64,000 bases of DNA, taken from Thermoplasmatales archaeon. Its GTDB lineage: Archaea > Thermoplasmatota > E2 > DHVEG-1. Where the stretch lies: positions 1,682,157-1,746,156 of the forward strand of contig CP070836.1 in the NCBI GenBank assembly GCA_020341795.1, in the 5' to 3' direction. The notes below the pieces were generated by a model. It saw only the letters and a program-made list of their open reading frames with translations, made no database searches and was not told the origin of the DNA. A program made the translations under genes and the position numbers. This document shows positions 3,296 through 29,050 of the stretch, piece by piece. Numbering within the stretch: the first letter of the stretch is position 1; each line of letters starts with the position of its first letter.

Positions 3296-3369
3296 GGGCT
3301 CGTAGCTTAGTCTGGCGGAGCGTCTGGCTCATAACCAGATGGTCGCAGGTTCAAATCCTGCCGGGCCCA
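3296..3369 (+). tRNA. tRNA with CAT anticodon (elongator Met, or Ile2 if C34 is modified)
   Basis: Cloverleaf by eye: acceptor GGGCTCG/CGGGCCC (one G-U pair), anticodon arm TCTGG-CTCATAA-CCAGA, T-loop GGTTCAAATCC, discriminator A, no encoded CCA. It has G1:C72, so it is not initiator-like. Confidence 0.9.
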
Positions 3370-3926
3370 TTGACTTTAAAAGGAAAAAAGCTAGAGAGAG
3401 TTAGTACTTTAAGACTATAGTGAAGAAGACCTTTAAATCTTATTAGCCAACGTCGAATCTAATCTATTATTTTTAAGAGGACTAATAATATCGATTTTAA
3501 GGATAATCTCCACATCTTACAGTTCTAGTTTGATTAGGATTTAAATAAATCTCAGCAGTTTTTTAACATTCTTTGGTAAAATTTAAAAGGCTATTAATTA
3601 TTATTACAGTTAAATATAGACAAACGTGGATGGGGACCATTTAATTGTTTTCAAAAAAATCTCTAGAGGGGACGAGAAAACATGAAGAAGATTATTATGA
3701 TAGATGTAACTATCAGGATTTGAATCTTATTTGCTTAAATAAAGAAAATGCTGAAGTATTTGACGACGTTGATAATCTTATTAAAAGTATTCTTGTTAAA
3801 AGTAAGTATTCTTCATATAAGAAACAAGTTACAGATATATTTGAAAAACATTTTTTTAATAATAAACCTTTCACCAAAAGGTCAAGGAATCAAACAGGTA
3901 TCAGAATTATATTCAGAAATGGTAAG

Positions 3927-6158
3927 ATGAAATCTGTTAAAAAAATGTTACCGTTTGTTCTATCATTTATAATGTTTTTTGCTGTTTTAGATTCTGTTGG
4001 TTCTTTTGATATAAAAGATGCAGTGGATTCTAATGTTACTGATATGGACAGCAGTGCAGATATTGGAGTGGAGAATAATTTTCCTAATGCTCAGGATATA
4101 TATCCTGATTTTAACAATATGAATATCCAAGAGAGTTATACATATGGATTGCCAAGTGAAGAAGATTTATATGTCAATGCTTATGACAGCACTTATATTA
4201 ATTGGATACCTTTAGGCGTATCACCATATTTAGATACAGTAGACGCTTCTAATATTATTAAATCTAAATCAGAAGGAACAATGGGATGGTTTGATTTTCC
4301 CGCAACTACAAAAACTGGATATCTTACAGTTGATGCAGAAATTTATGTTAATAGTTGGGATGGGGATGTATTAATAGAATTTGAATGGACAGGAGATACA
4401 ACAGCAGATGCAAGTATTCAAACAACTGGACCAACATCTAATTGGTATGAATTAGGAACTGTAACAGGTCTTGACAATGCAACAGAAGTGGACAACTGTA
4501 GGATAAGAGTAGTTTGGGCTGCAAGTAAAAACAATTGGATAGAAATAGATGCTTTCCGTTTGGAAGTGTCAGAATCTACGGATAGTTATGAAATAGATTT
4601 TGAATATAATTGGAGCAACGCGGACTATGATGAGTCAAATGAAGAAATATGTTTTTATGTTAGTAGTCATACAGGTAATGAGAACCTTAATGTAAGCTAC
4701 TGGTCTGGTTCTTGGACTTATCTTGGTCAAATAACAAACACAGGTTGGACAAATCTTACAGCAACAGGTCTCTCTGATGCCACCTATGAAATACAGCTAA
4801 AAGGAGATAACGAGTCAAGTGATAGTATTCAGGATGACTGGAATATCGATGTTATTATGTTGCATACTTGGACTACACCTACAGTCCCAATCGTCTTAAC
4901 AAACTTTTCAACAGGAGTTGAAGAAAACAATGCTACATTAAATGGATATCTGCAAAGCAACGGAAGCGCAGACACAACTACTTACTTCCTATGGGACAAT
5001 GATGCATCAGGAGAACCATACGCAAATAATCAGAGTAATGGTATAACGGCGAATTTAAGTGAATTCCAATTCGACGCAACAAGTCTAACAAGCGGAGATT
5101 TATACTATTTTAACACAAAAGCAAATAATAGCGCAGGATGGGATGATAGTGGAGGAGAATTAACCTTCTTCACCAAACCACCAGCAGTGACTAGCTTCAT
5201 AGAAAGTGCTTCAACTAACACTAGCCTTACCTACACATGGATAGAAGCAACTGTTGGCAGCGGTGCAACCGCATATTCAAGGATTCAGTATAAAACCGGA
5301 AGCAATCCAACATCAATCAGCGATGGAACTAATACCTATAACGGAACTGATGAAACCGACAACACTGGTAGTCTGAATCCTGGGACACACTATTACTTCA
5401 GCGCGTTCAGCTGGGGAATCGAAAGTACTGTAGGAAACTGGAATGATACATACGATACCATGGACGCCTGGACTAACCCTGGAGATCCAACAAGTGTAAG
5501 CACAACCAATGGAACAAACTGGATAAATGTTACATTCACACATGGGACTAATGGATCCTATACCATGATCCGTCGAAATACTACTGGATCAGCATATTAC
5601 CCTGCAGATCGCTCCAGCGGCGTCCTAGTTGATAATACCACCCACCAATATGCCAATGACATCAGTCTCAACTCTGGTATTACCTATTACTATAGTCTTT
5701 GGACCTGGGATCCCGATGGTAAGAAATGGTGCGACAACAAAATCACCATAGCTGAAAACACCTCTTGGAATACATCAATAGAAATCATCCCGGAGCAGTG
5801 GATTCAGGGAAATATATGGATAGGGGACACCAATGCTACAACTGGTTTTTATTTTAATCTTACAAACGAGGGAAATGTTGCTTTAAACATACAAATAAAT
5901 GCAAGTAATGCTACTAACTCTTCAACAGGTGCTGAATGGAAACTCAATTCAACACCGAGTAACGATAATTTTACGCTTCAGTATAACAAGAGTGGTGGTG
6001 GTACCTGGACTAATATTAACACTACATATGATGTTTTTGTCACCAACTTGGGTGTAAATTCCTGGCAGACTTTTGATTTGAAACTGATTATGGCTACTGA
6101 ATCATCTACAGAAGATCCATTATCTTTTGAAGTGACATTCAAATCTGTAAAAGCATAA
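3927..6158 (+). CDS. Large secreted Asn/Thr-rich protein with Fn3-like repeats and a C-terminal beta-rich domain; no membrane anchor
   Basis: The ORF is open from 3645, but the likely start is the in-frame ATG at 3927 (MKSVKKMLPFVLSFIMFFAVLDSVG, a signal peptide). Repeated Fn3-like segments occur (LTNFSTGVEENNATLNGYL..., TKPPAVTSF..., PGDPTSVSTTNGTNWINVTF...). The C-terminal 129 aa (5769-6155) resemble the product of 8388-8912. Confidence 0.6.
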   Translation: MKSVKKMLPFVLSFIMFFAVLDSVGSFDIKDAVDSNVTDMDSSADIGVENNFPNAQDIYPDFNNMNIQESYTYGLPSEEDLYVNAYDSTYINWIPLGVSPYLDTVDASNIIKSKSEGTMGWFDFPATTKTGYLTVDAEIYVNSWDGDVLIEFEWTGDTTADASIQTTGPTSNWYELGTVTGLDNATEVDNCRIRVVWAASKNNWIEIDAFRLEVSESTDSYEIDFEYNWSNADYDESNEEICFYVSSHTGNENLNVSYWSGSWTYLGQITNTGWTNLTATGLSDATYEIQLKGDNESSDSIQDDWNIDVIMLHTWTTPTVPIVLTNFSTGVEENNATLNGYLQSNGSADTTTYFLWDNDASGEPYANNQSNGITANLSEFQFDATSLTSGDLYYFNTKANNSAGWDDSGGELTFFTKPPAVTSFIESASTNTSLTYTWIEATVGSGATAYSRIQYKTGSNPTSISDGTNTYNGTDETDNTGSLNPGTHYYFSAFSWGIESTVGNWNDTYDTMDAWTNPGDPTSVSTTNGTNWINVTFTHGTNGSYTMIRRNTTGSAYYPADRSSGVLVDNTTHQYANDISLNSGITYYYSLWTWDPDGKKWCDNKITIAENTSWNTSIEIIPEQWIQGNIWIGDTNATTGFYFNLTNEGNVALNIQINASNATNSSTGAEWKLNSTPSNDNFTLQYNKSGGGTWTNINTTYDVFVTNLGVNSWQTFDLKLIMATESSTEDPLSFEVTFKSVKA

Positions 6159-6360
6159 GATGTTTGATATGTAGGTATGGATACACTATAAAGATTTTAG
6201 ATAATTTTTCTATTTAGCCATTTTGTTACAATGTAAATTTTACCAACTTGCTATTTTACCAAATTATTTTTAAATATAATTAATGAGAGAATGTATCGTG
6301 TTATCACATATCAATATAGGTTGTAATATTCAAAACAACCAAGAAACGGAAGGAAAAAAG

Positions 6361-8097
6361 ATGAAAGGAAGGCAAAAGAAAAAAAGAAGGATTTCCTTAT
6401 TCATATTTACCATTACTTCTGTTTTTATATTTTTTATACCAACTGGGCTAACCAATGAAGAAATAACCCTTGGTTTTAAACCTAATCTAGGAAATATACC
6501 ACCTTATCAGCCAACAGATCCTTATCCTCCAGATGGAGCTACAAATCTCGAGATCCCTGTAACATTAAACGTCAACGTGCCAGATCCAGATACCGACCCA
6601 ATGGACGTGTATTTTTATAACGCATTAGATGACTCTATTATCGGAACGGATACAGTTCCAAATGGATCAACTGCCTCATGCACCTGGAGTGGATTAGCAC
6701 CAAATACTATCTATCGTTGGTATGTTGTAGCCAATGATTCCGAATACGAAAACACCTCATCCATATGGAGTTTCACAACTGAATCATCATATGGTAGTGG
6801 AGGAGGTTCTCCCCCACCAGTAAATCAAAAACCAATAGCCAAAGTTACAGGCCCTGATACTGGATACGTTAATGAATACATATCTTTCTCAGTTCAATAT
6901 AGCTATGACCCTGATGGAGATATTACCGGTTACCGATGGGATTTTAACAATGATGGATTATTTGATACCGACTGGATTGAAGATACACTCATGACTTATA
7001 CCTATTTCCAACCTGGTAATTATTCCGTAAAACTTCAAGTAAAAGATGATGATGATGCCACTTCTACCGACTCCTATGTGATAACTATTATACAACAAGA
7101 GCCGGATCAACAATCTCCTGTAGTTCAGGCCAATGGACCGTATGATGGACTTGTATATGAAAACATTACTTTCACCGGCGTCGGCAGCTTCGATCCCGAT
7201 GGAACAATAGTTAACTATACCTGGGACTTTGGAGATGGAATAATAAGATATGGAATTGAAATAATCCATAGCTATAACATCTCAGGGATATATAACATAA
7301 CACTGAGTGTTACAGACAATTACAACCTTACTAGTAATAATACCACCGTAGCTAATATCTTGATAGACTCTGATGGAGACGGCTGGAGTGATGAAATAGA
7401 AAAATCATACGGAACAAACATATCAGATCCAAATTGCCAACCATTAGATAGTGATAGCGATGGAATACCTAACAATGATTCATTGGATGGCAACTATACA
7501 GGAGACATTGATAATGATAACGATGGGCTCGACGATGAAACAGAAAAAATATTTGGAACAGATCCCAACAATGAAGTAGATGTAATAAAACTAGAAATAG
7601 AAGAAAAAACTTATTATCTCATCAACACAAACAATGATGAACAAAGTGACATCCTCTATATCCCATTTACTGAGGAAAACACAATAATAAAATTAATAGA
7701 TGGTAAACTATATTTAGACACTGACAATGACAGTAAATGGAATTATATATATGATCCAACAACAACTCAAATTATGCTATATAAGCCAGAAGAAGAAAGT
7801 ATACAACTGCCTTTACTATTCTTAATAATTATTGCTATCATTGTTACAATCATTACCTTCCTGTTCATACGCAAACACTATGAAATCAATCGCCTGATAA
7901 AACAATTAAGTAAACTAAAGAAAAAACAACAAATATACAAAAAGAGAGCTAATAAACTTAGGAGTACCAAAAGAACTAATAGAAAAAGAGCAAGTACATA
8001 TTATCACACAAAATCCAGGAATTCCATAATAAAAACAAAAATAAAATCAAAGATTGTATCGCAAAAATCCGATAGAAAAAATCACAAAAAAATATAA
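6361..8097 (+). CDS. Membrane-anchored surface protein: signal peptide, two PKD-like domains, Asp-rich (thrombospondin type-3-like) repeats, TM segment, basic tail
   Basis: The likely start is MKGRQKKKRRISLFIFTITSVFIFFIP at 6361. PKD-like motifs are YDPDGDITGYRWDFNNDG and FDPDGTIVNYTWDFGDG. Asp-rich repeats are DSDGDGWSDEIEKSYGTN...DSDSDGIPN...DNDNDGLDDETEKIFGTDP. The TM segment is LPLLFLIIIAIIVTIITFLFI, followed by a Lys/Arg-rich tail. Confidence 0.7.
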   Translation: MKGRQKKKRRISLFIFTITSVFIFFIPTGLTNEEITLGFKPNLGNIPPYQPTDPYPPDGATNLEIPVTLNVNVPDPDTDPMDVYFYNALDDSIIGTDTVPNGSTASCTWSGLAPNTIYRWYVVANDSEYENTSSIWSFTTESSYGSGGGSPPPVNQKPIAKVTGPDTGYVNEYISFSVQYSYDPDGDITGYRWDFNNDGLFDTDWIEDTLMTYTYFQPGNYSVKLQVKDDDDATSTDSYVITIIQQEPDQQSPVVQANGPYDGLVYENITFTGVGSFDPDGTIVNYTWDFGDGIIRYGIEIIHSYNISGIYNITLSVTDNYNLTSNNTTVANILIDSDGDGWSDEIEKSYGTNISDPNCQPLDSDSDGIPNNDSLDGNYTGDIDNDNDGLDDETEKIFGTDPNNEVDVIKLEIEEKTYYLINTNNDEQSDILYIPFTEENTIIKLIDGKLYLDTDNDSKWNYIYDPTTTQIMLYKPEEESIQLPLLFLIIIAIIVTIITFLFIRKHYEINRLIKQLSKLKKKQQIYKKRANKLRSTKRTNRKRASTYYHTKSRNSIIKTKIKSKIVSQKSDRKNHKKI

Positions 8098-8387
8098 TAT
8101 ATTTTATTAAACAAACTAATTCTATGATAAATAAACAGATATCAAAAAAACTATTGGGAATATACATTTATCTTGTAATAATTCTCATATTTTTACTAAG
8201 TTACAATATAAGCGTAAGCTAACCTCAAGTTGCAAAAACGAAAATTTTAATAACTATTTTTTCATATTAGACCCAGCACTCTGTCTTTTATTACAGATAG
8301 AATAAATAAGTGTGAAATGATGGGATGCAAGAAAAAAAATAAAAAATATTGTAGAAAATTCATTTTAAGATAGGATGGGATGTAGAT

Positions 8388-8912
8388 ATGAAAATAAAAA
8401 AGACATTGATGATAGGTCTGATTTTAATTATGTTAGTCGTTGTATCATTTGCACCGGTATCAATCACTGTAATAGCAGCTACGACTGATACAATTACCAT
8501 AGAATTTGATCCTCAAGGTAATATCTCAATTGATGTTAGCCCAGGGACATACAATTTTAGTACATTTTGGTCTTATAGTGACGAATCTACAGGTGGAACA
8601 TATTTCACAATTTGGAATAATGGTACTGCAGACAACATGCAAACCGATATCCAGATAACAGGTAGTCCTGCTTCTCTAACAATAGATGAGGATAGTGAAC
8701 CTACTGCTGATGATAACTACGCGCTTTATCTAATAGGTGGCACTGCTTCAGGCATAAATGCATGGGTTAAAGAAAGCGCAACTATCCAGTTAGATAGTGA
8801 CCTTGATACAACTGGTACAGAAACTTTTGGTTTTCAACTTTACATATCTAACATTACAGCAAATCATACTTGGCAATCTATGACATTAACCTTGACGGGT
8901 TCACAAGCATAA
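8388..8912 (+). CDS. Small secreted beta-rich protein (174 aa), candidate fibre or structural subunit
   Basis: N-terminal signal or anchor MKIKKTLMIGLILIMLVVVSFAP. The remainder is Thr/Asp/Gly-rich with alternating beta-strand-like patterns (YFTIWNNGTADNMQTDIQITG, ETFGFQLYISN, MTLTLTG). There is no C-terminal anchor. Confidence 0.55.
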   Translation: MKIKKTLMIGLILIMLVVVSFAPVSITVIAATTDTITIEFDPQGNISIDVSPGTYNFSTFWSYSDESTGGTYFTIWNNGTADNMQTDIQITGSPASLTIDEDSEPTADDNYALYLIGGTASGINAWVKESATIQLDSDLDTTGTETFGFQLYISNITANHTWQSMTLTLTGSQA

Positions 8913-9031
8913 ATAAAAATAAAACACATAACTTTATTTCTTTATTTTTTATAATGTTATTATTTTATCAAAGATTAATAACAATGTTTTTAAGTAAAAT
9001 TAGTATATGATTTAATACTGGAGGATGGGCT

Positions 9032-9679
9032 GTGAGGATAATCAAGATTCTATTTTTAATTTTTTTATTTTTATTAATAGGCCTCAACATTTTTTTACCT
9101 CCTCCTGTTTCATCAGGTGGCCTATCTATATGGCCAGGAAAGCTAACTATCACAATGTCAGATGGTTATCCTGAGGAAGAAATCCAGTATGAAATCAAAG
9201 TAAGTAATAGTAATACCTATGATATCAATGTTACAGGAGAAATTGCAAACCCAAGTCTTCACCGTTTAATGAAGAATTATACTTTTATTCCTGATTTATC
9301 CTGGGTTCAAATCACATCTGATATCGTTCATATACCTGCTAAGGAATCACGTTTTTTAAAAGTAATTATTAATATACCTGATTCAGAAAAAACATTACAT
9401 TATAATGAACGCTGGGAAGTATGGATAGTAGTATCAGAATTAATTAATCAATCACAAGATGCTGGAGCTTTTATCCAGACTGAACTTGTTGTAAAATTTT
9501 TTATCATTACTCCATTTGTTGAAGAAAAGTCGCAAATACTACAATTTTTTTATTTAATAATATTATTTACTATAGGTGGATTATTAACTGCATATGTTTT
9601 CTATATCAAATCTCGCGGGAGAGATATATTTAGAAATAAACAGAGTGTTTTTTATTTTAAAAAATGGAAAAAACGTTGA
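9032..9679 (+). CDS. Single-pass membrane protein with an Ig-like ectodomain (paralog of 12369-12974)
   Basis: GTG start preceded by GGAGG. It has a signal peptide, an Ig/CARDB-like pattern (EIKVSNSNTYDINVTG), the conserved motifs NYTFIPDLSWVQI and WEVWIVV, a C-terminal TM segment (FFYLIILFTIGGLLTAYVFYI) and a basic tail. Confidence 0.6.
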   Translation: MRIIKILFLIFLFLLIGLNIFLPPPVSSGGLSIWPGKLTITMSDGYPEEEIQYEIKVSNSNTYDINVTGEIANPSLHRLMKNYTFIPDLSWVQITSDIVHIPAKESRFLKVIINIPDSEKTLHYNERWEVWIVVSELINQSQDAGAFIQTELVVKFFIITPFVEEKSQILQFFYLIILFTIGGLLTAYVFYIKSRGRDIFRNKQSVFYFKKWKKR

Positions 9680-9833
9680 GAAATCAAATCGTAGAAAGTA
9701 AGCAAAGAAAATAAATTATAACCATAAATATTCTTTTTCTGTTATTTTTGTATTTCTTATCTTGTTTTATGTTGTTTCTTGAATCTATATTAGTTCATTT
9801 TTTAGGATATATTTATCACAAAATTCAATTATG

Positions 9834-9918
9834 TGATTCATATATGAATCATATATGATTTATATATAAATCATATTTAAAGCAAAAATATATAAATAAA
9901 TGATTCATATATGATTCA
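9834..9918. promoter_or_regulatory. Three 18-bp operator-like palindromes upstream of the RHH gene
   Basis: TGATTCATATATGAATCA (9834-9851, perfect palindrome), TGATTTATATATAAATCA (9856-9873, perfect palindrome) and TGATTCATATATGATTCA (9901-9918, one mismatch). A TATA-like atatataaataaa at about 9888-9900 lies between sites 2 and 3. Site 3 ends 3 nt before the ATG at 9922. Confidence 0.6.
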
Positions 9919-9921
9919 AAC

Positions 9922-10110
9922 ATGGGTAAAATCCAGAGGTTTCCAGTTGGTTTTCCTCCCATCATACGGGAAATAATAAAACAACAAGTAGGCACACTAG
10001 GTAATTCCGAGGCTGAAGTCGTCAAAAACATGGTTCTTATTTATCTGACTGAAAAAGGAATGCTAAAACGCTTCGAAACCAAACATAAAAAGGAGGAGAA
10101 AAAAAGATGA
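9922..10110 (+). CDS. Ribbon-helix-helix (CopG/Arc/MetJ-like) small DNA-binding protein
   Basis: 62 aa. It has an N-terminal beta-strand (KIQRFPVGF), a helix (PPIIREIIKQQVG), the G-x-S turn (LGNSEAE) that opens helix 2, and a basic tail. Its stop overlaps the start of the next gene (10107). Confidence 0.6.
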   Translation: MGKIQRFPVGFPPIIREIIKQQVGTLGNSEAEVVKNMVLIYLTEKGMLKRFETKHKKEEKKR

Positions 10111-12305
10111 ACTGGAATCTTAAAGTCCAAAGAGTTCTCTTACTGACAATATTCTTTTTCATATTTATAGCACTCTCAATTACTATAAAATCAATTCCTC
10201 CTGTCACACAAGAAACATTAATAGTTGACATAAGTGGTAATGGAGACTATATCAGTATAAAGGAAGCAGTTAATAATGCCAAACCAACTGATATTATACA
10301 TATAAAAGAAGTAGTATATAAGGAAAATAATCTGGAGATCAATAAGAAAATAACGATCATAGGGGATAATCCTGACACTACAATTATTAACTGTGAAGAA
10401 AAAAACGGATTTATGTTTTCCAGTACATATGTTGATATAAAAAATATTCAACTAACAGACACCAAAGAATATGCAATTTATGTTCCATTTGAGAGTAATA
10501 GTTGTTCCATATCTAATTGTATTATAAACAAAGACACGGCAGGTGTTGGTATTTTAGTACGAGCTAATTCTGTAATTATTTCTAATTGTGATCTAAGGGG
10601 ATATAATAAAACTGCAATAGGTATCCAGTTACAAGAATATAACAATATTATCCAAGAGTGTACTATCCAAAGATTCGACGTAGGTATCTTAGTCATTCTA
10701 AATGCACATGATAACAAGATTCTAGATAGTAACCTATTGGACAACAAAAAAGCAGTAGACATTAGAATCAATTCAAATAACAATTTAGTAACTAATTGTA
10801 ATATCTACAGCAACAAAATAGGAGTTCATATCTGGCAAAGCTCCAATGATAATCTAATCTATCATAATAATCTCTGGAAAAACGATGAAGATGCAAAAGA
10901 TGAAAGTAATAATCAATGGGACAACGGTAATGTAGGAAACTATTGGGATGATTACATTGGTATTGACAACGATGGAAACAGCATTGGAGATACACCATTT
11001 ATAATATCTGCAGAAAATGCAGATAGATTCCCGATTGTAAACATGATTCTCCCAGATTTTATATCAATTCCAACTAATGTAAAACATGTGTCAAGCGTAT
11101 CTGATAACACTCCATCTTTTACATGGGATCCCTCGTTTTATAATAAAGGTGTCAAGGGGTATTATGTAAGGATAGATAGCAACCCTGAAATAAATATCGG
11201 TAACGATATAACAAGTTGGACTTCACCTGTTATCATCTCAGAAGGGATTCACAGTTTCTATGTCTGGGCAGAGGGCACCGATGATACTAATAGCAGCTAT
11301 GCCTCAATTACATTTTCGATTGATACCATATTTATAGACAACGACCAAGACGGATGGTCTGATGAAGAAGAGCAAAGATATGGTACAAATCCAAATGATC
11401 CGGACAATTACCCCTTGGATACAGATAATGACCATATACCTAATCCTGTTGATTCCGATGATGATAACGATGGTTATAGCGATGACATGGAACGATCTTA
11501 TGGGACGGACACAGTTAACTTAAATAGTTATCCAATCGACACAGATGAAGATTATTTACCGGATGATGACTCACCAGATGGAATATACACTGGAGATATC
11601 GATGATGATAATGATGGCCTTATAGATATATTTGAAATAAACCTTGGATCTAACCTATTAGATGGAACAGATGTAATAAAAATCTATATCGACGGAAAGC
11701 CATATTATCTTGTTGATATATCAAAGAGTGGACAATATGATATCATTTATGAACCAAGTAGAAAATCTACAACTGCCGTAGAAATTTATGATGAAAATTA
11801 TCTTATAGATCTAAATGGGGATGGCTCATGGGACTATATGTACTATGTTTTAGATGGAACAGTATCTGAATATGCCGAAATAGTTTTACCGTGGACGTTT
11901 GTTACCGGAATACTATCAATCCTGGTAATACTCTTTATTATATCAATTATCGTTATATATTATATTAGAATTAGACCCATAAAATATATATTCTATAAAG
12001 AAGCAAAGAAACCTGTTGAAAAACGAATGATTAAAAAACCCTTTAAATTCTATGCTGACGATAAAGATACTATTAAGATGATTAGTCAAACAAAATACCT
12101 TCTACAAAATATTCAACGGGATGTAACAGTATATATGGATAAACTGAATCAAATCGAAGATCAAATCGAAATGACTATAGCTGAAGATGAGGAGGCTTCA
12201 ACATCTTTAGAAAAGTATACAAGTAAACCAACAAACAATGTTGATATAGAAAAAGAAGTAGATGAACTCCTATCACGATTCAGTAGAGATGACAAACAGC
12301 AGTAA
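10107..12305 (+). CDS. Membrane-anchored surface protein: NosD/CASH-type right-handed beta-helix, Asp-rich repeats, TM segment, acidic coiled-coil tail
   Basis: It starts with a signal or anchor. Parallel beta-helix repeats (ISNCIINKD..GILV.., ISNCDLRGY.., IQECTIQRF.., ILDSNLLDN.., VTNCNIYSN..) are followed by NYWDDY...GDTPF. Asp-rich repeats are DNDQDGWSDEEEQRYGTNP...DTDNDHIPN...DDDNDGYSDDMERSYGTD. The stalk region is homologous to 6361-8097. The TM segment is ILSILVILFIISIIVIYYI. Confidence 0.7.
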   Translation: MNWNLKVQRVLLLTIFFFIFIALSITIKSIPPVTQETLIVDISGNGDYISIKEAVNNAKPTDIIHIKEVVYKENNLEINKKITIIGDNPDTTIINCEEKNGFMFSSTYVDIKNIQLTDTKEYAIYVPFESNSCSISNCIINKDTAGVGILVRANSVIISNCDLRGYNKTAIGIQLQEYNNIIQECTIQRFDVGILVILNAHDNKILDSNLLDNKKAVDIRINSNNNLVTNCNIYSNKIGVHIWQSSNDNLIYHNNLWKNDEDAKDESNNQWDNGNVGNYWDDYIGIDNDGNSIGDTPFIISAENADRFPIVNMILPDFISIPTNVKHVSSVSDNTPSFTWDPSFYNKGVKGYYVRIDSNPEINIGNDITSWTSPVIISEGIHSFYVWAEGTDDTNSSYASITFSIDTIFIDNDQDGWSDEEEQRYGTNPNDPDNYPLDTDNDHIPNPVDSDDDNDGYSDDMERSYGTDTVNLNSYPIDTDEDYLPDDDSPDGIYTGDIDDDNDGLIDIFEINLGSNLLDGTDVIKIYIDGKPYYLVDISKSGQYDIIYEPSRKSTTAVEIYDENYLIDLNGDGSWDYMYYVLDGTVSEYAEIVLPWTFVTGILSILVILFIISIIVIYYIRIRPIKYIFYKEAKKPVEKRMIKKPFKFYADDKDTIKMISQTKYLLQNIQRDVTVYMDKLNQIEDQIEMTIAEDEEASTSLEKYTSKPTNNVDIEKEVDELLSRFSRDDKQQ

Positions 12306-12368
12306 ACAGCAATACAATGATTATAGTGTGAAAGTTTACAAACTTCATAATAGAAAAAGTATGATAAT

Positions 12369-12974
12369 ATGAAAAAAACAGTCTCATTAATGACCATAAT
12401 TTTATTTTTGTTGATGTTAATTCCAATATGTAAAGGAGACTTTATTGTTCAACCTCGAGAAATATCAATTACGATGGATAACGAGTTCATCCTTAGTAAT
12501 ACGTCAAAAAAAATCATGATAACAAACAACAACGATTACAGCATTAACATCTCATGGTATCTTGAACATCCTAATCCTATCTCCTGGATGAGACCAAATA
12601 AAACGTTTATCCCTAGTTTATCCTGGATTGATTTAAATCCTAAATGGTATATTATCCCGCCAGATGATAGTGTTTCGTTTTATATCTATTTATATGTCCC
12701 TGAAAGTAAAGATCATCTGAAACAAAATTGGGAGACATGGGTTACTTTTAAAAAAGAATACCAAGAGGGCATATTTAACCAAGAACACGCTGTGAGGATA
12801 TATATAGATACTCCCATCATAATGACAAATAATAATAATTATAGTCAAAATAAGCCATCGATACCAAGAAAAGAACACATAAACATCCCATTCTTAGTTA
12901 TAGTGATTTCAGTAGTTTTTGTGATAATACCACTGGCACTAGGTGGTTTATCTTTCAAAAAGAAGAAATCATAG
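12369..12974 (+). CDS. Single-pass membrane protein with an Ig-like ectodomain (paralog of 9032-9679)
   Basis: It has a signal peptide, the pattern KKIMITNNNDYSINISW, the conserved motifs NKTFIPSLSWIDL and WETWVTF, a C-terminal TM segment (IPFLVIVISVVFVIIPLALGGL) and a KKKKS tail. Confidence 0.6.
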   Translation: MKKTVSLMTIILFLLMLIPICKGDFIVQPREISITMDNEFILSNTSKKIMITNNNDYSINISWYLEHPNPISWMRPNKTFIPSLSWIDLNPKWYIIPPDDSVSFYIYLYVPESKDHLKQNWETWVTFKKEYQEGIFNQEHAVRIYIDTPIIMTNNNNYSQNKPSIPRKEHINIPFLVIVISVVFVIIPLALGGLSFKKKKS

Positions 12975-13200: not shown

Positions 13201-14667
13201 TTATGTTATAATAGATTTTTCAACCATATTTTTAATACAACCAGGGTCAGAAGCTAAAAAATTTCCCGTATAGCCATAAGCCCGTGCTCGACATCCACCA
13301 CAGAAATAACGGTATTCACATTTACCACAATTACCTTTCAGTTCATCCTTATTTCTTAGATCGTCAAGAAATGGATTGTTTCTCCATAATTCTTCAAAGG
13401 AACTAACTTTTAAATTACCAAGCATAAAGGGGAAAAAAACACATGGTTCTATATCACCATTTGGTTTAATGGCACAATACAATCTTCCACATCCACAACC
13501 ACCAATAAACTCAGTAAGATTTACAAGTTTACCTTGTAACTCCGGATTTGAAAAATGAGTAGGGACAATTTTTTTATTTTTTCCAATTTCTGATTCAAGT
13601 GCTACACGTGCAAATTGAGGTGCAGTTGTTAAAACATTCATTTTTCTACCAGATTTTAATCGTTCCCATAACATTTTCAGAAGTTTTTCACGCTCAATTG
13701 GTGATAAATCATTCTCAGATATAAACTCTCCTCGTCCTGTTGGAATAAAATTATAGACCATAAACCAGTTAACATCAAGATCTTCACAGAGCTTAATAAT
13801 CTTAGGAATTTCAGAATAATTATAGTGTGTTGCAGTGGTTGCAATATTTACAAAAAAATCTTGATCAACACAATTACGAATACCCTGTATAGTCTTTTCA
13901 TAAACCCCTTTTATCCCTCGGAAATTATCATGAGTTTCAGCAGAAGCGCCATCAAGGCTTATTTGAACAAAGGAAACACCATTATCTTTCATCTCATTAG
14001 CTTTTTCTTTTGTAATCAAAGTACCATTTGTTGCAACAGCAACATACATCCCTTTATCACGGGCATATCTAGTTAATTCAAAGATATCGTTTCTAACTAA
14101 AGGTTCCCCACCTGAGAATGATAGGATGGGGACACAAGCACGATCAAGTTTATCAATAATCTCTTTTGCTTCATGAGTTGTTAATTCATCCCCGAGAGAT
14201 TTACCAGCATTGGCATAACAATGTTTACATCGAAGATTACAAGAATAAGTAATATCCCAAACAACAAGGAATGGAGCACCAGTAATAAAGGGTCTTTGAA
14301 TGCCAAAATGTGCAATACCTGTCAAAACATTTGCAAGACCTTTTCTCCATGAAGGATGAGAAAAATGTTCTTTTAACTTTTCTGGTGTTACGCCGAATGC
14401 TTTACCACCTGTTTTTAAAACACTGCTAATTGCTTTTTTAGCAAGGATACATTTAATACATGCATCTTTACGAATACCTACATATAATTCTAAGGCTACT
14501 TCAACACGGTTTTTACCACATTTTTCACAAAAACCAAGACCAGACAAAATCTTACGTGTTAAAGGATTTCCGATAGTGGACTTCAATATTTGGATTGTAG
14601 TAACAGTCCCCAAATATTTCTTCCTCCAAAATATATTTAATTTAAATATTTTTTTATTGATCCGCAC
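13201..14667 (-). CDS. Radical SAM enzyme with a C-terminal SPASM-type auxiliary-cluster domain and an N-terminal Cys-containing extension
   Basis: CxxxCxxC motif in WDITYSCNLRCKHCYANAG, and GGEPL in FSGGEPLVRND. The C-terminal Cys-rich region is GGCGCG...C...C...GNCGKCEYRYFCGGCRARAY. The roughly 130-aa N-terminal extension has CEKCG and CIKC. The true start is uncertain. Confidence 0.75.
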   Translation of the reverse strand: MRINKKIFKLNIFWRKKYLGTVTTIQILKSTIGNPLTRKILSGLGFCEKCGKNRVEVALELYVGIRKDACIKCILAKKAISSVLKTGGKAFGVTPEKLKEHFSHPSWRKGLANVLTGIAHFGIQRPFITGAPFLVVWDITYSCNLRCKHCYANAGKSLGDELTTHEAKEIIDKLDRACVPILSFSGGEPLVRNDIFELTRYARDKGMYVAVATNGTLITKEKANEMKDNGVSFVQISLDGASAETHDNFRGIKGVYEKTIQGIRNCVDQDFFVNIATTATHYNYSEIPKIIKLCEDLDVNWFMVYNFIPTGRGEFISENDLSPIEREKLLKMLWERLKSGRKMNVLTTAPQFARVALESEIGKNKKIVPTHFSNPELQGKLVNLTEFIGGCGCGRLYCAIKPNGDIEPCVFFPFMLGNLKVSSFEELWRNNPFLDDLRNKDELKGNCGKCEYRYFCGGCRARAYGYTGNFLASDPGCIKNMVEKSIIT

Positions 14668-14853
14668 TTAGTTAGGATTTTATATTATATATAAATATTT
14701 TCCCGATTTTGTTTTTAAAAAAAGGTTTTAGAAAAAACAGGTTATTTAATTTAGAATTTTTAGTTTTTAATAATTAATTTATTCAATTCTCTTTATATTA
14801 ATAGGAAGGAGCCTTCTGGACCAGTTTGTTAATTATAAGGCTTAATTTGAAAA

Positions 14854-16017
14854 TTATATGTATAATGGAAACGTAATTATATCCTGTATATCCATTGAAG
14901 CATTATTTTCATTATTATAAGCAATTACTCTTAATTCATGTGTACCACATTCTTCGCATGGTAAATACCATTCAAATGGTTTTTTAGAAATATTATATTT
15001 TAAATTTTTATCAATATAAACCTTGACATTTCTAGTATCCTTAGAAGCATCCATTTTAATAGTAGTCCCTTTTATTATTATAGCTTCTCCTTTTTTTACA
15101 ATAAATTTTCGCAATAATGATTTTTTCCAAGAAATATTATTAAAATACATCTTACCTCTTTTTGGACTTTCTATGTAAACTTTTGGTACATCGGGTTGGA
15201 AATTACCATATACACCATCTATATATAATATACCAGTACCTCCATAAAAACCTATGAAAAATGGTTGAAGAGGTCTATGCGCATTATATGATACTCTTAT
15301 CCATCCTTCCTCACCCCAACCTTTTCCCCAGCTGTTTTTTATAAGCCAACATTGTTGACTATCATCATAACCAAATATAGTAATAACATGTCCTCCTTCT
15401 ATTTTACCCCATAGATTTCTATAAATTCCACCTGAGTATCTCTGGAAATCACTTCTTACTATCATACATATCACTAATGGTCCGTAATTGATCAAAGCAT
15501 TTTTTATAGAGTCTATATCAGTATCTACCCATCCCCAGTTTTCAATTTTAATTGTTCTATTTTCCCATCCTGGAAGTACATCATCAGGGGAGCTATCCCA
15601 TGGTCTTCCAGGATCTGGATAACATCCTTCATCTGGAACCCCAACTTCTTTTAGTTGAGTCATACATTTTTTTATATCAACTCCCCAGTCACATGTACCA
15701 CCTGAACTAAAAAATAAATGCATTTCTGAAAGATCACATTCGAATGGGTAACCAACTTTGTATTGTATTATTGTTTCAAGAGAAGCAACTAACGCATATG
15801 CCTCACAACTTGGACAGGGTGCTTGGTTTTTTATGGAGGTTGAATAATCAATTCCATTTATATTACACCAGTTAAAAGATGATGGTAATTCTTTATTTTC
15901 TTCCTTGTTTATTTCATTTTTTTGTATTATTTGAGGGGTAAAAAGAGGTGAAAAAATTATATTAGTAAGAAATAAAGCTATTATTATTGATGATTTTGTT
16001 AGATATTTTTTCTCCAT
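14854..16017 (-). CDS. Exported papain-family (C1) cysteine peptidase with a C-terminal beta-sandwich domain
   Basis: Signal peptide. The catalytic Cys region is NQAPCPSCEAYALVASLE, the His region is GGHVITIFGYDD, and WLIKNSWGKGWGEEGWIRVSY is also present. Confidence 0.8.
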   Translation of the reverse strand: MEKKYLTKSSIIIALFLTNIIFSPLFTPQIIQKNEINKEENKELPSSFNWCNINGIDYSTSIKNQAPCPSCEAYALVASLETIIQYKVGYPFECDLSEMHLFFSSGGTCDWGVDIKKCMTQLKEVGVPDEGCYPDPGRPWDSSPDDVLPGWENRTIKIENWGWVDTDIDSIKNALINYGPLVICMIVRSDFQRYSGGIYRNLWGKIEGGHVITIFGYDDSQQCWLIKNSWGKGWGEEGWIRVSYNAHRPLQPFFIGFYGGTGILYIDGVYGNFQPDVPKVYIESPKRGKMYFNNISWKKSLLRKFIVKKGEAIIIKGTTIKMDASKDTRNVKVYIDKNLKYNISKKPFEWYLPCEECGTHELRVIAYNNENNASMDIQDIITFPLYI

Positions 16018-16042
16018 AGATAATATCTCACATTTGAATTAT

Positions 16043-18370
16043 TTATTTTAATAATTTTTTTATTAATGGTAGTTTTAAACTTTCAAATAATTTTAATATT
16101 GAAAAATCTTGAATTATACTCATTTTCGGCATTCTGACAGATAATGGATCTGACCATTCACTTTCATGTCCATTTGTATCTTTTGCTTTAACCTTTATCT
16201 TATAATTAGTCCTTATTTGCCATGTGTTTGATGCTTCTGCTTCTTCACCTGACTCATAGGGTCCTATCCATCCACTATTAGTTCCATCACCCCAGTAGAA
16301 AAAGTAATAAAGATCATTTCCTTGAGGATCAGTTGTAGAAGTAGTATAAGTGTATTCTACACCTGCACTTCCAGATATTGGACCTGATGGTGTTCTTGGT
16401 TTATTTGGTTGTTCATTTCCTATTTGGACTTTTTTTAGTGTACTAAAATCTCCCCATCCATGTTCAGAATTAAATCCTTTAACACGATAGTAAAAAATGC
16501 CATCTTGATGATTTGTAACTGAATAATAATTATTCTTAATATTATCTGAAAGGGTGGCAATTTCATCTATATCTGATATTGGTGATATGTCATCAACATA
16601 GAATCCTTCATTATTTCCTCCATAGTCACTACTATAACGAAATCGTATATATACTGATTCATTAGTATAGTCATCTAAACTATACTCTTTATATTCCCAA
16701 CCTTCTGAGGCACCATTGAATGAATCAAGAACATCATAAAGTCTTCCTTCTCGGCTGACTTCAACAAAAGCATAATCATATCTATTTTCCATATCATACC
16801 AGCACCAAAAAGATAGTACTGAACCTAATGATACTGGTACTGGATTTACACTAGTCATAGACGTTATACTCATGGAAAACGTCTCTGTTTTATAGGAATT
16901 ACTATCTGAATGCGGTCTATCCTCTGATATTTTAAAACCATCTAGAATCCATTTATCTGATCCTGATTCACTATCATCCACAATTAAATTTAAACTTCTA
17001 AACTCATCTAATTGAAATTTACTAGTTTCTGCTTCTGGATTTTTTTCAGTCCAGGAAATTACAAAATCTCTATATTTAAGATGACCGAGATCATCAATAA
17101 TTGGAGGTGCTACTCGTGGAATAACATTTTGTTTTATATTTTCAGCTTCTTTTAGTAAATAAAGGGCTCCTTCCCAGTTTTCTTTTGTAATTTGTTCAAG
17201 ATTAATACTTGCAGGATGATATGATTGGCAAGCTTCAATTGTATATGCAAAAAGAGGTTTACCTAATATATAATGATAATATCCATAAATCCAATCGGTG
17301 GTATCACCAGTTGTTGGATATAAACCTGCGGCTTGTGTAGGATAATATGTGTCTAAGTTATCCTGTGTGTTTATCTGATTTGCAATTCCTATACCGATTT
17401 GAGACATAAATTGATCATCAGGAGCTTGAACATCTCCTGAATACCCCCACGGCCACATAACAAGTTCTCCATGGGTATGCCAAGAGATTGTTGCTGTTAT
17501 GTCATTTTCAAGAAAAACTCTGCTTGCAGCTTGAATTTCAAGTTCTGACATAGGACTAGGACCACAATAGACTTCTGATTTAGGATTATGCTCAACAGAT
17601 CCACGGCCTATTGAACCCCATGTCCCGATTATATCACCATTACATGAACCAGGATAATTACGATTTAAATCCACCCCATATGTAAGTGTGTTTGGGAAAA
17701 AATGTCTATTTTTACGCCAATCATGACCTAAATCATGTGAAAAATAATATCCATCAGGATTGACACATGGGACAATCCAAATACGTAGATTATTTACAAG
17801 ATCAGTAATAACTGGATTAGAACCATATTGCGCTGTTAACTGTTGAGCAATGTACAGACAAATCTCCATTGTCGGCCATTCACGTGCATGATGAAGACCC
17901 ATAAAATACACACCAGTCTCACCTTCATCTACACCAGGATTATCAGATAATTCAAGACACCAAATATCTCGATTCTCATAACTTAATCCAAGACTATTAA
18001 GTTTAGCTATATTTGGGTAGTCATTAGCTATTTCATGTAAACTGTTTTCTAATTCCTCAAATGAGTGATAATCATCTGCAATATTCTGTAGATAAATATC
18101 TAGGTTATCAATAAGAATTGTGACATCTTCATTAGATGATAAAAAATCTTCAAAACTTGAGCTGGGAATAATTATATCCCACCATTTATCAGGTTTTCCG
18201 CCTATTATTTCATGATCTAAAGATAAAATATCAAAATTATTAATATTTGTTATTCTTACTAAAATACAATGGTCATCTGAAGATTGAGAATTAGTCAAAT
18301 TAACAGCAGATGCACAAGATATAGTTATTAGAAAAACACATAGAAAAATTGTAGGTAATTTATAATTCAT
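16043..18370 (-). CDS. Exported M14 zinc carboxypeptidase with additional C-terminal beta domains (PKD-like)
   Basis: The preferred start is MNYKLPTIFLCVFLITISCASA (ATG at 18370); the ORF is open to 18394. M14 motifs are YHSFEELENSLHEIANDYPN, GLHHAREWPT, NPDGY, WRKNR and VDLNRNY. The C-terminus is PKD-like (YYFFYWGDGTNSGW...KVKAKDTNGHESEWS). Confidence 0.8.
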   Translation of the reverse strand: MNYKLPTIFLCVFLITISCASAVNLTNSQSSDDHCILVRITNINNFDILSLDHEIIGGKPDKWWDIIIPSSSFEDFLSSNEDVTILIDNLDIYLQNIADDYHSFEELENSLHEIANDYPNIAKLNSLGLSYENRDIWCLELSDNPGVDEGETGVYFMGLHHAREWPTMEICLYIAQQLTAQYGSNPVITDLVNNLRIWIVPCVNPDGYYFSHDLGHDWRKNRHFFPNTLTYGVDLNRNYPGSCNGDIIGTWGSIGRGSVEHNPKSEVYCGPSPMSELEIQAASRVFLENDITATISWHTHGELVMWPWGYSGDVQAPDDQFMSQIGIGIANQINTQDNLDTYYPTQAAGLYPTTGDTTDWIYGYYHYILGKPLFAYTIEACQSYHPASINLEQITKENWEGALYLLKEAENIKQNVIPRVAPPIIDDLGHLKYRDFVISWTEKNPEAETSKFQLDEFRSLNLIVDDSESGSDKWILDGFKISEDRPHSDSNSYKTETFSMSITSMTSVNPVPVSLGSVLSFWCWYDMENRYDYAFVEVSREGRLYDVLDSFNGASEGWEYKEYSLDDYTNESVYIRFRYSSDYGGNNEGFYVDDISPISDIDEIATLSDNIKNNYYSVTNHQDGIFYYRVKGFNSEHGWGDFSTLKKVQIGNEQPNKPRTPSGPISGSAGVEYTYTTSTTDPQGNDLYYFFYWGDGTNSGWIGPYESGEEAEASNTWQIRTNYKIKVKAKDTNGHESEWSDPLSVRMPKMSIIQDFSILKLFESLKLPLIKKLLK

Positions 18371-18431
18371 ATAAATATGCCTCCAATAAACCATAATGTA
18401 GGAAGCATTATATAATTTTATTTAACATGCG

Positions 18432-19553
18432 TTAATTATGAGTTTTAATAAATTTTTGCAATCCTTTAATTGCGTGAAGTTTTTGTTTATTTCCAATTTT
18501 AGCCTGATTTATTCCAGATTTAATAATTATTATTGATTCATCCATAGCTTTTCGATCAACAGGGAAGGGTACGCCATCTTTACCGCCGACAGTAAAACTA
18601 TATTTAACAGGATCTTTCCAACTAGGTTTAGAACCATAAATAAGCTCAGATATTAATGCTAGAGCACGAACTGTATTTGTACCCACTCCATTTATTGATA
18701 AAAGTTCTTCGTAGTCTTTTGGTTGAAAATCATAAATTTTACGCATTGTATTCCAATTGATGCTACGTGGCATATCAAGACAAATTCTGCTTTTTTTATT
18801 ATTATCAACTGAAAAAAAACTATCTAATCTTTTCTGATAAATTTTGTTATTTAGATATAAAAAATCATTTTTTATATGATTAGGATTATCGTTTACAAGA
18901 TCTACACAAACTTTCTGACAATTCTCACTATTTTTTGAAGACATGTCAAGTACTTTTGAATTACTCTTCTCGCCAATTATGCTACTATGAGGATTACAAA
19001 GAAAATTATCAAATTTATCTGAAAACCAATGATATCGTCGAGCATAATTTGTCTCATCATTCATACCTTGTTGTATAACACTCCATTTACCGTCCTCAGT
19101 TAAAAAGAAGACATGATGATAAAGATTATGACCATCTTGAACAGCTGAATTATCAACTTTAGCAGTCATACGACTTGCATATTTAATTTCATCAATCTTA
19201 GTAGTAGATATGTTAAAATAATTACCTATCTTTTCAAGCTCTTCAGGTGTTTTTCTTGATACTTTACCTTTACCGCCAGCAATTCCAATACCGTGTTCTT
19301 CAGGATTTAGAGCTTCTTTTAAAGCTCCGCAAGTAACAGTGGTTGTACCACTAGAGTGCCAGTCAAATCCTAAAACACAAGAAAGACATTGAAACCAAAA
19401 AGGATTGGAAATGTGTCTTAAAAATTCCTCTTTACCATATTCCATTATTATTGCTTCAATTATACCTTCTGATAGGGAAACCATTCTTCTAAATAACCAT
19501 TTTGGAGCGCTACCACCATGTAATGGTAGATTCGCAATTCCTGTTTTCCACAT
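18432..19553 (-). CDS. Conserved archaeal protein, DUF763-like
   Basis: 373 aa. The N-terminus IANLPLHGGSAPKWLFRRMVSLSEGI...WHSSGTTTV is recalled as typical of DUF763. The function is unknown. Confidence 0.45.
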   Translation of the reverse strand: MWKTGIANLPLHGGSAPKWLFRRMVSLSEGIIEAIIMEYGKEEFLRHISNPFWFQCLSCVLGFDWHSSGTTTVTCGALKEALNPEEHGIGIAGGKGKVSRKTPEELEKIGNYFNISTTKIDEIKYASRMTAKVDNSAVQDGHNLYHHVFFLTEDGKWSVIQQGMNDETNYARRYHWFSDKFDNFLCNPHSSIIGEKSNSKVLDMSSKNSENCQKVCVDLVNDNPNHIKNDFLYLNNKIYQKRLDSFFSVDNNKKSRICLDMPRSINWNTMRKIYDFQPKDYEELLSINGVGTNTVRALALISELIYGSKPSWKDPVKYSFTVGGKDGVPFPVDRKAMDESIIIIKSGINQAKIGNKQKLHAIKGLQKFIKTHN

Positions 19554-19765
19554 GATTATTTTAAAATTAGAATTACTATTTTAATTATTTACTATAAGGT
19601 AATTAAAACTATGAGATGTACTTGAGTACTTTTAATTATCTCTTTTTTAGGTTTATATAGTATTATTGCAGTACATGATATTAGATTGACGAAATGATAC
19701 GGGGGACATGCCAGCCCCCCAACTGGCTGGCATTTCTGCCAATATTTAGAATTAATATTTTGCAT

Positions 19766-19787
19766 CCCTCAACCCATTCCCATCCCC
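19766..19787 (-). other. Canonical G-quadruplex-forming motif (G-rich on the minus strand)
   Basis: The minus strand reads GGGGATGGGAATGGGTTGAGGG: four G3+ tracts with loops of 2, 3 and 4 nt. It lies in the divergent intergenic region between the DUF763-like gene and the NFACT gene. Confidence 0.4.
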
Positions 19788-19845
19788 TCCTTTTTTTCTT
19801 TTATGATACTTTTTTAATATTACCACTTGTATTCACATAGAGTTT

Positions 19846-22859: not shown

Positions 22860-22866
22860 AGAAAGA

Positions 22867-23664: not shown

Positions 23665-24152
23665 GGATTCACTCTCAAGTCAATTTTATAATTTATTAAT
23701 CTATATTTATAAGTATATTTTGTTATTTATTAAATTTTTCCTTTAATCTTATAAATTTATTTTCTTATTTATATATAAAAATAACTCTATATAAGTTTTG
23801 TGTTATTAATAAAAATAAAAAAATATAAACTTAACACAATATAAAGATAGATAAATGAGTCAGACAATTGATTACACGAGATATAAAAAAAGACTTCCTA
23901 TTTTTAAAAAAAACTCAATTATATTATCATTAATCACATTAATTCTTATTTTAGTGGGAGATTTATTAGTAACAGTGCATGCAATAATATAAATTTTAAT
24001 TAAATTTTTCTGGAGATCAATTAATAGTATTAGAATTAATTTTCGGAGCCGTGTCTTCAGGACTTTATAAAAATATATACAAATTAGTTGGATTTATTTT
24101 AGGTGTAGTAGCAATATGCGTTGGAGCATTATTTACACATATCAGCCTTAGT

Positions 24153-25157: not shown

Positions 25158-25194
25158 TAATCATTATCACAATAAAATAAATTATTATTAAATC

Positions 25195-26514: not shown

Positions 26515-26640
26515 TAATTTACTTATCTTTTATTATTTATATTCTTTATTTTACAAATATTACCTTAAAAACCTCCTTATTCAAAAACTTTATCATAACA
26601 ATATTGTTTCCACAAATGGTATAAAAATGAGGCGATACAT

Positions 26641-28526: not shown

Positions 28527-28666
28527 GTATTTTGGTAGCCTACCTGATTTTCTTTTGGGAATAAAGTTACTCATACTTAAACCTAATACTCATTGTTAAT
28601 TCAATTATCGAACATTACGGAAAAAACATTATAAACCTAATAATAAATTAATAGCTGTGTTTAACG

Positions 28667-29026: not shown

Positions 29027-29050
29027 CTAATAAAATTTAATGGTGTAAGA

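Follow-up and report, generated by a model that had tools for sequence, protein, structure and literature searches.

In the WxL clusters of Firmicutes, a small WxL protein and a large WxL protein are encoded together with a transmembrane (TM)-anchored, immunoglobulin (Ig)-like WxLIP protein, and AlphaFold2 predicts that a strand of WxLIP completes the WxL sandwich (PMC10599100). The Pam pilus of the Candidate Phyla Radiation (CPR) has two C-terminally TM-tethered, PapD/FimC-like chaperones, proposed as the drivers of an usher-free donor-strand exchange (bioRxiv 10.64898/2026.03.03.709456). The archaeal donor-strand filaments solved so far (bundling pili, threads, cannulae and Tafi) were described as chaperone-free, a picture that an archaeal subunit with a PapD-like tethered partner would alter. 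This report concerns seven genes, named A to G, that form a cluster at positions 3927-12974 of a 64-kb window (the whole stretch of DNA that was analysed) from a Thermoplasmatota archaeon.

The conserved core of the cluster is a triad, in which a shared C-terminal domain, found both on a large cargo protein and as a standalone protein, is accompanied by a PapD-like partner. We put at roughly 0.35 the probability that the PapD-like proteins D and G hold this domain by beta-strand complementation and that copies of the standalone protein C stack to form a stalk with A at its tip. A literature search found no paper on this system, nor any on archaeal fibres with PapD-like partners. The cluster encodes a conserved, undescribed extracytoplasmic system, possibly the first known in archaea to build a fibre or a surface display with the help of a chaperone.

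Gene set and conserved gene order

Seven open reading frames (ORFs) on the plus strand lie between a tRNA-Met gene (3296-3369) and a radical-SAM/SPASM gene (13201-14667, minus strand). An earlier note, made from the letters of this DNA alone, had described them as co-oriented genes for secreted or anchored proteins plus one small regulator, and the ORFs were confirmed as follows.

3927..6158, plus strand: A, 743 amino acids (aa), secreted; signal-peptide-like N-terminus, no membrane anchor, variable head, constant C-terminal domain
5769..6155, plus strand: the shared domain, which is Ig-like, homologous to C and forms the very end of A
6361..8097, plus strand: B, anchored; signal peptide, Fn3-like region, two PKD domains, TSP3 calcium-binding repeats, stalk, TM helix, basic tail
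8388..8912, plus strand: C, 174 aa, secreted; signal peptide, N-terminal strand TDTITIEFDPQG, then the shared domain alone
9032..9679, plus strand: D; signal peptide, one PapD-like Ig domain (a beta domain of about 135 aa), C-terminal TM helix, basic tail
9834..9918, no strand assigned: operator-like array; two perfect 18-bp palindromes and a third site abutting the start codon of E
9922..10110, plus strand: E, 62 aa, basic, probable DNA-binding autoregulator; ribbon-helix-helix by pattern only
10107..12305, plus strand: F, anchored; signal peptide, NosD-type right-handed beta-helix, Fn3-like region, TSP3 repeats, stalk, TM helix, cytoplasmic tail of about 110 aa
12369..12974, plus strand: G, paralogue of D; signal peptide, Ig domain, TM helix

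The host archaeon has a low G+C content (about 30%), and the sequence of C is identical to JSV67_08505, a protein of the metagenome-assembled genome (MAG) 'Thermoplasmatales archaeon'. For A, C, D, E and G, nothing above threshold was found in Pfam or NCBIfam. By inspection, the N-termini of A, C and the other exported products resemble ordinary Sec signal peptides with A-x-A-type sites (in C, between ...VIA and ATTD). The longest ORF for A opens at a TTG at 3645 and its signal peptide starts only at the ATG at 3927; the 94 codons of 3645-3926 have no support from homologues and are probably untranslated.

Close relatives of C and D were located on the same metagenomic contigs. A total of 16 related loci (four from metagenomes and twelve from genomes, all of them Thermoplasmatota-type MAGs) were scored with one hidden Markov model (HMM) per part. 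The order A-type, B, C (1-2 copies), D, E (1-2 copies), F, G was observed in 16/16 loci as far as the contig extends, and it holds at identities of D as low as 32%. Wherever a locus reaches past the C-type gene, a D-type gene is its neighbour, and B is found at the same position throughout the related loci. The G-type gene follows F in most of them, and in L016 it encodes two tandem domains. The flanking genes vary by locus, and the seven genes therefore travel as a unit; the chance juxtaposition of generic surface ORFs, which the earlier note had offered as the alternative to a real, conserved surface system, is thereby set aside.

Six more distant loci (L023 and L025-L029) were reached from distant standalone members of the domain family. 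The order A-type, standalone copy (1-2), D-type was found in 6/6 of these, and the triad recurs there without B or F. The D-type HMM detects a D-type protein in five of the six loci; that of L027 is fused to PKD domains and was recognised by motifs only. Two loci (L025 and L029) are from Candidatus Omnitrophota bacteria. In L025 (3526-9797) the A-type protein is a 1433-aa Peptidase_S8 protein, followed by a standalone copy and by a D-type protein (E-value 7e-27) with two tandem domains and no membrane anchor, and L029 (134-2088) has the same order, with a D-type protein that is a single soluble domain. The D-type protein of L026 (4770-5258) has the lipobox signal LLSAC and would be lipid- rather than TM-anchored, and those of L023 and L028 have a C-terminal TM helix. 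A gene for PcrB (geranylgeranylglyceryl phosphate synthase) in L023 points to an archaeon as the source of that locus. The D-type protein of L023 (8492-9064) has a zinc-ribbon-like insert (CPKC...CPHC) within the extracytoplasmic Ig domain.

As the anchor varies and the Ig domain is constant, the latter is the conserved functional part of the D-type proteins. Their mode of retention tracks the cell envelope, with soluble proteins where an outer membrane would confine them and tethered proteins where they would otherwise be lost. Because the D-type proteins are TM-anchored in the clearly archaeal loci and unanchored in the diderm Omnitrophota, the pattern of anchoring fits an assembly factor (periplasmic or membrane-proximal) better than a pure tether. 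These observations replace the 'two-cassette' organization that had been proposed, in which B and F were each followed by one of the paralogues D and G: C intervenes between B and D, the recurring unit is the A/C/D triad without B or F, even in bacteria, and in L010 the G-type gene adjoins a short A-type gene and not F.

The shared domain and its PapD-like partner

Pairwise comparison of C with the C-terminus of A yielded a weak similarity (E-value 0.007). Comparison of the C family with the A C-termini using hhalign gave a probability of 96% and an E-value of 1.4e-9, hence clear homology, which bears out the common terminal domain that had been suggested for the two proteins; the C profile also matches the A-type C-termini of other loci, down to an E-value of 1e-12. 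The A-type orthologues differ in their heads and in length, the shortest having 263 and the longest more than 2226 aa, with the final 130 aa or so constant (alignment A3). Several heads contain a Laminin_G_3 lectin domain plus DUF2341, and one Omnitrophota head is the Peptidase_S8 domain mentioned above. The A protein of the window is without a recognisable enzyme domain in Pfam; it had been called Fn3-rich, a description that finds no backing, as no fn3 match was obtained at E-values up to 1.

None of the 41 close relatives of C has a Pfam domain, and an exhaustive HMMER search with the C profile returned just 137 representatives in 1.84 billion proteins. These were pooled with the earlier C relatives to give 142 scored members, of which 124 are standalone proteins of about 160-190 aa and 18 are larger proteins that terminate in the domain. 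The domain match stops 0-8 residues before the protein C-terminus in 142/142 members. Standalone members retain the amphipathic strand TDTITITFDPQG right after the signal-peptide site and ahead of the canonical first strand ISIDVSP, and the profile match begins beyond the N-terminal strand in 12 of the 18 larger proteins. C is highly conserved, with tandem duplicates in L002, L010 and L028.

Sub-threshold Pfam matches of the C family were to HYDIN_VesB_CFA65-like_Ig (8/29 members), Cep192_D3 (5/29) and DUF1573 (3/29). The C profile reaches proteins with bona fide HYDIN/ASH/DUF1573 repeats at E-values of 5e-9 to 1e-4, aligning over the first half of the domain only; in the proteins checked (P0143 and P0181), the aligned part overlaps the segment with the highest HYDIN score. 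We take the ASH, HYDIN and DUF1573 Ig domains to belong to the PapD-like clan of Pfam. The A C-termini gave sub-threshold matches to WxLIP_PGBD (DUF916) in 9/14 cases (best E-value 2e-4, 21.7 bits versus a cut-off of 27.3). Judged from these profile matches, the shared domain, which is unannotated, probably belongs remotely to the PapD-like/ASH group of Ig folds.

An assignment to the WxL domain was considered and is not supported: a central W-T-L motif is visible by eye, but Pfam WxL (PF13731) matched 0/29 C-family members and 1/14 A C-termini (E-value 0.053). WxL was likewise reported for none of 54 distant members in the top 25 families. No match was found for C in PDB sequence searches, with either the single sequence or the family profile, and neither C nor the A C-terminus was significantly similar to fourteen E. 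coli pilins in hhalign. The C family and the D family showed no relation in hhalign, though other routes point to PapD-like-clan folds for both.

T-rich runs (TTTATTTCTTTATTTTTTAT) are located at 8913-8960, 25-45 nt past the stop codon of C and ahead of D. They could act as an incomplete archaeal terminator and so increase the ratio of C to D transcripts, of which they are a weak sign because the genome is AT-rich.

D and G are paralogous, as had been proposed (28% identity, E-value 7e-18). The AlphaFold model of D (mean predicted local distance difference test score (pLDDT) of 85) has a signal helix, a single beta-sandwich and a long C-terminal helix. A Foldseek search of this model against the PDB placed domain 1 of chaperone-usher chaperones on top (E-value 2e-7, probability 1.0); the matches include Caf1M, CsuC, FimC, FaeE, DraB, SafB and PapD, and also the ASH and Cep192 PapD-like domains. 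A profile search with D/G found 175 relatives, and no Pfam domain was present in any of the 120 listed. For D, and for the family profiles of D and E, PDB sequence searches yielded nothing significant, and DUF916 and DUF3324 had no matches in 26 members of the D/G family. Taken together, the C and D/G families and the A C-terminus pass no Pfam threshold and match no solved filament protein in the profile and structure searches that the earlier note had called for.

Basic residues are conserved in the D family at position 37 of the first (A) strand (K/R in 22/26 members) and at position 155 of the last (G) strand, in the motif VKLFIxTP (K/R in 25/26). In PapD, Arg8 and Lys112 clamp the C-terminal carboxylate of the subunit. 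By analogy, K/R37 and K/R155 of D would sit at positions corresponding to these two residues.

Regulator, anchored proteins and flanking genes

E is the most conserved product of the cluster, with 63-87% identity between loci whose D proteins share only 32-41%. Its gene is preceded by two perfect 18-bp palindromes, TGATTCATATATGAATCA (9834-9851) and TGATTTATATATAAATCA (9856-9873), and by a third site (9901-9918), and all four pattern matches of the window fall within this array. GATTCA/TGAATC half-sites about 11 bp apart were found upstream of E in 12/12 E-bearing loci. Most loci have the proximal pair at about -20/-9; in L001 and L010 it is displaced, and L008 has one site only. The half-site density is 25 per kb upstream of E versus 1.1 per kb elsewhere. 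No sites of the array type occur ahead of A, B or C. Because this conserved array is directly upstream, E is very likely a DNA-binding autoregulator of the E-F-G unit. The DNA binding ascribed to E by the earlier note is thus supported, indirectly, by the conserved operator, and its assignment to the ribbon-helix-helix family is not confirmed by profiles: the order beta-strand, helix, G-x-S, helix is by eye typical of that family, but 14 E orthologues had no Pfam match and none in PDB sequences. E and F overlap in an ATGA (10107-10110) that holds the stop codon of the one and the start codon of the other, and E directly precedes F wherever E is present; the two may be a functional pair, for example with the tail of F sequestering E.

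The two PKD domains noted earlier in B (PKD_4, E-value 3e-32) and the NosD-type beta-helix noted in F (NosD and Beta_helix, E-value 1e-14) were both recovered with Pfam, as were TSP3_bac in B and TSP3 repeats in F. NCBIfam NosD_copper_fam matched F at an E-value of 2e-26, below the cut-off. The C-terminal modules of B and F, which had been thought to be the same, are homologous (36% identity, E-value 3e-25). The cytoplasmic tail of F (11970-12302) is conserved across loci, with a helical segment MISQTKxLLQNIQxDVxxYMxKLxQIEDQI and a C-terminal (D/E)IxxxVDxLLS; the latter motif also terminates the B tails in L001, L006 and L007 and the D tail in L003. The recurrence of the motif suggests a common cytoplasmic partner, or hints at signalling via the anchored proteins.

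A tRNA-Met gene and an AIRS-family gene are found 0.5-2 kb downstream of the cluster in L001, L010, L014 and L016, together with a tRNA-Leu gene in L001 and L016. In the window, the tRNA-Met/tRNA-Leu pair is located at 28452-29027 (AIRS block to 32255), 15 kb off, and a second tRNA-Met gene (3296-3369) is upstream of A. This arrangement suggests that about 15 kb (13201-28385) were inserted or rearranged in the present genome. A mobile island at tRNA-Met was considered and rejected, as the tRNA-Met/tRNA-Leu/AIRS block near the cluster in four other genomes argues for vertical inheritance and local rearrangement. Among the window genes scanned, no ribosomal-protein or other highly expressed genes were found as a reference for codon bias. 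The window also encodes the following secreted peptidases.

14854-16017, minus strand: papain-type peptidase (C1)
16043-18394, minus strand: M14 carboxypeptidase
40632-43214, plus strand: gingipain-type peptidase (C25)

C25 genes were also located in L003 (11042-12856), L006 (13965-16868) and L011 (13943-16864), in the last two directly downstream of G. A protease maturation like that of type V pili was considered with regard to the nearby C25 and S8 genes and not adopted, since the positions of the protease genes are not conserved; their recurrence could reflect either a proteolytic lifestyle or such a maturation.

Proposed assembly, alternatives and comparison with known systems

The gene set, the homologies, the synteny and the conserved operator are established directly, and the model of D predicts a PapD-like fold. 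From these we infer that D and G contact C and A, that strand complementation is involved and that C polymerises, and we likewise infer what B and F do. All products but E would cross the membrane via Sec. The membrane-tethered D and G would capture the shared C-terminal domain of A and C by edge-strand complementation, as in pilus chaperones and WxLIP proteins, and C (the domain plus an N-terminal strand) would stack head to tail into a short stalk or fibre. A would tip this stalk, where its variable head (lectin-like or Fn3-like, a protease elsewhere) would bind or catalyse, and D or G, by keeping hold of the last subunit, would secure the structure to the cell. B and F would be co-displayed, calcium-binding anchored surface proteins, and E would bind the palindrome array before its own gene and autoregulate E-F-G. 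The invariably extreme C-terminal location of the shared domain, as in pilus tip adhesins and WxL proteins, and the combination of variable A-type heads with a constant C-terminal domain were counted in favour of this assembly, as were the synteny, the triad in distant lineages, the anchoring pattern, fold and basic residues of D, the conservation and duplication of C, the operator of E and the Pam pilus as a precedent. The physiological role may be adhesion or the display of hydrolases. A more specific form of the proposal, namely the first chaperone-assisted, usher-free donor-strand-exchange pilus of Archaea, with D and G as chaperones, C as stalk subunit, A-type proteins as interchangeable lectin or enzyme tips and a soluble-chaperone version in Omnitrophota, is tentative and on balance doubtful.

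Several results weigh against stalk assembly. Only 1/26 members of the D family matched PapD_N (PF00345), at an E-value of 0.075, and the Ig domain of D compared with seven E. coli chaperones (FimC, SfmC, YadV, ElfD, YcbF, YehC and YraI) reached an hhalign probability of 2%; the short alignment pairs the A strands in the expected register. D has a single domain and no PapD_C, whereas the chaperones of chaperone-usher systems form their subunit-binding cleft from two. As PapD-like/ASH domains are a common surface Ig fold, and C itself is probably a remote relative in the same clan, the fold match of D is no proof of chaperone function. Most A-type proteins show, by eye, a poorly conserved beta-like segment where C has its N-terminal strand; this strand may be no more than the opening strand of the C fold, and the difference between standalone and large members is therefore suggestive, not decisive. 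Foldseek with the AlphaFold model of C gave a best E-value of 0.014, with no filament proteins among the top matches and no solved filament subunit matched; this is a weak negative, because the model is partly of low confidence (mean pLDDT of 73, residues 45-70 below 50). B and F, though conserved, are given no mechanistic part in a fibre. The characterised archaeal donor-strand filaments were all reported to be chaperone-free (PMC9245690; PMC12337348).

A static complex of the WxL/WxLIP type, in which D and G are anchored receptors that each bind one shared domain by strand insertion and so tether A or C without any polymer, is nearly as likely as the assembly of a stalk, though itself improbable. 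It would account for a parts list like that of WxL clusters (a small domain-only protein, a large protein with a C-terminal domain and a TM-anchored Ig-like protein), for the weak DUF916/WxLIP_PGBD matches in 9/14 A-type C-terminal domains, for an A protein without an anchor of its own on a cell without a wall, and for the protease as cargo in the Omnitrophota locus. However, the D-type proteins are unanchored in both Omnitrophota loci and cannot tether there, a static complex leaves the universally kept and sometimes duplicated domain-only protein unexplained, and neither a WxL domain nor a DUF916-DUF3324 pair was detected where membership requires them. Compatible with either mechanism, and unlikely as the purpose of the cluster, is an extracellular complex that degrades or captures detrital protein or polysaccharide by displaying hydrolases and binding modules (the beta-helix of F, the PKD protein B and lectin or protease heads), with C and D as scaffold. 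The beta-helix of F is of the NosD/pectinesterase type, Peptidase_C25 genes stand beside L003, L006 and L011 and Peptidase_S8 genes beside L023, L026, L027 and L028, the window has Peptidase_C1, M14 and C25 genes, and one A-type protein is a Peptidase_S8; against this, the flanking proteases vary in position between loci and may just reflect a proteolytic lifestyle, and A of the window has no recognisable enzyme domain.

There is little to recommend the reading of the products as co-regulated but physically independent surface proteins, with shared domains that are generic Ig-like spacers and a gene order due solely to vertical inheritance. Archaeal surface proteins do commonly contain PKD, TSP3, beta-helix and Ig-like modules, and most of the loci are from one phylum, but the order of the triad is kept across domains of life at very low identity, the shared domain is strictly C-terminal in every scored member, and C-type and D-type genes are neighbours wherever the locus runs beyond the former.

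If stalk assembly by D and G is correct, the 'anchored chaperone, no usher' solution proposed for the CPR would extend to archaea; in the more specific form, as a donor-strand-exchange pilus with a counterpart in Omnitrophota, it would be an ancient assembly pathway of both domains, distinct from the chaperone-usher, Pam, TasA and type V pathways. Whichever mechanism applies, the cluster provides a context for three unannotated families (the shared C-terminal domain, D/G and the small regulator) and a rule for cargo, namely any head plus the shared C-terminal domain, and the defined operator offers a regulatory handle. With regard to ecology, the nearby secreted peptidase genes hint at a protein-degrading lifestyle of these uncultured Thermoplasmatota.

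The cluster resembles known kinds of system by architecture and fold and fails sequence membership in each. The parts that the earlier note had listed as absent, among them type IV pilin (class III) signal peptides, sorting signals and secretion ATPases, are absent from the seven products. No assembly ATPase or platform domains were found in the cluster with Pfam, and no class III signal peptides by inspection; by Pfam, NCBIfam and the inspected signal peptides, it is neither an archaellum nor a type IV pilus nor a set of archaeosortase substrates. C had no Pfam, NCBIfam, PDB sequence or fold match to the TasA/archaeal bundling pilus (ABP) family. The archaeal donor-strand filaments (ABP/TasA-like, threads, cannulae and Tafi; PMC9245690, PMC9715654, 10.1101/2024.12.30.630787, PMC12337348) are alike in their small, Sec-exported, beta-rich subunits with an N-terminal strand and in operons with tip-like or anchor-like proteins and a small regulator. 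They are unlike in that no chaperone is reported for them, whereas PapD-like partners are present here.

In comparison with chaperone-usher pili (Fim, Pap, Caf and Csu), the fold of D matches chaperone domain 1 and D has basic residues in its A and G strands, A resembles a tip adhesin (variable head, C-terminal subunit-type domain), and the gene of the small, subunit-like C lies just before that of the chaperone-like D. Unlike these pili, the cluster has no PapD_C and no usher-type product, either among the seven genes or in the related loci, and its single-membrane host has no outer membrane. Membership at the sequence level in the chaperone-usher families is ruled out by non-significant hhalign comparisons with chaperones and pilins, and no significant sequence similarity was found.

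The resemblance to WxL/DUF916 loci and donor-strand systems that the earlier note had pointed to remains the best available analogy, given the same parts list as in WxL clusters (PMC10599100) and the PapD-like fold of D. The WxL/WxLIP (Csc) clusters of Firmicutes (PMC10599100; PMC1534035) are alike in their three-part logic, with variable binding domains ahead of a shared C-terminal domain, in a contact by strand insertion that is predicted there and proposed here, and in the weak DUF916-like signal. They differ in that the present cluster is without a WxL domain, its DUF916-like signal is in secreted and not in anchored proteins, D and G are single domains of another unannotated family and not DUF916-DUF3324 proteins, the archaeal host is without peptidoglycan, and the genes B, E, F and G are extra and conserved.

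For the Pam pilus, an NCBIfam scan of the seven products for homology, with a library that includes the Pam model PamR, gave PamR only, in the PKD region of B and at chance level (E-value 0.025, 13.5 bits versus a cut-off of 300). PamC and PamD are two-domain proteins, whereas D and G have one domain, and the Pam subunits come from a solved filament, whereas the present cluster is known from genes alone. Both systems have a single membrane, Sec-exported Ig-like subunits and no usher, and their operons include a membrane-anchored protein with Fn3 or PKD-type domains. At the level of architecture only, they also share a paralogous pair of TM-tethered PapD-like proteins, PamC and PamD in the one and D and G in the other.

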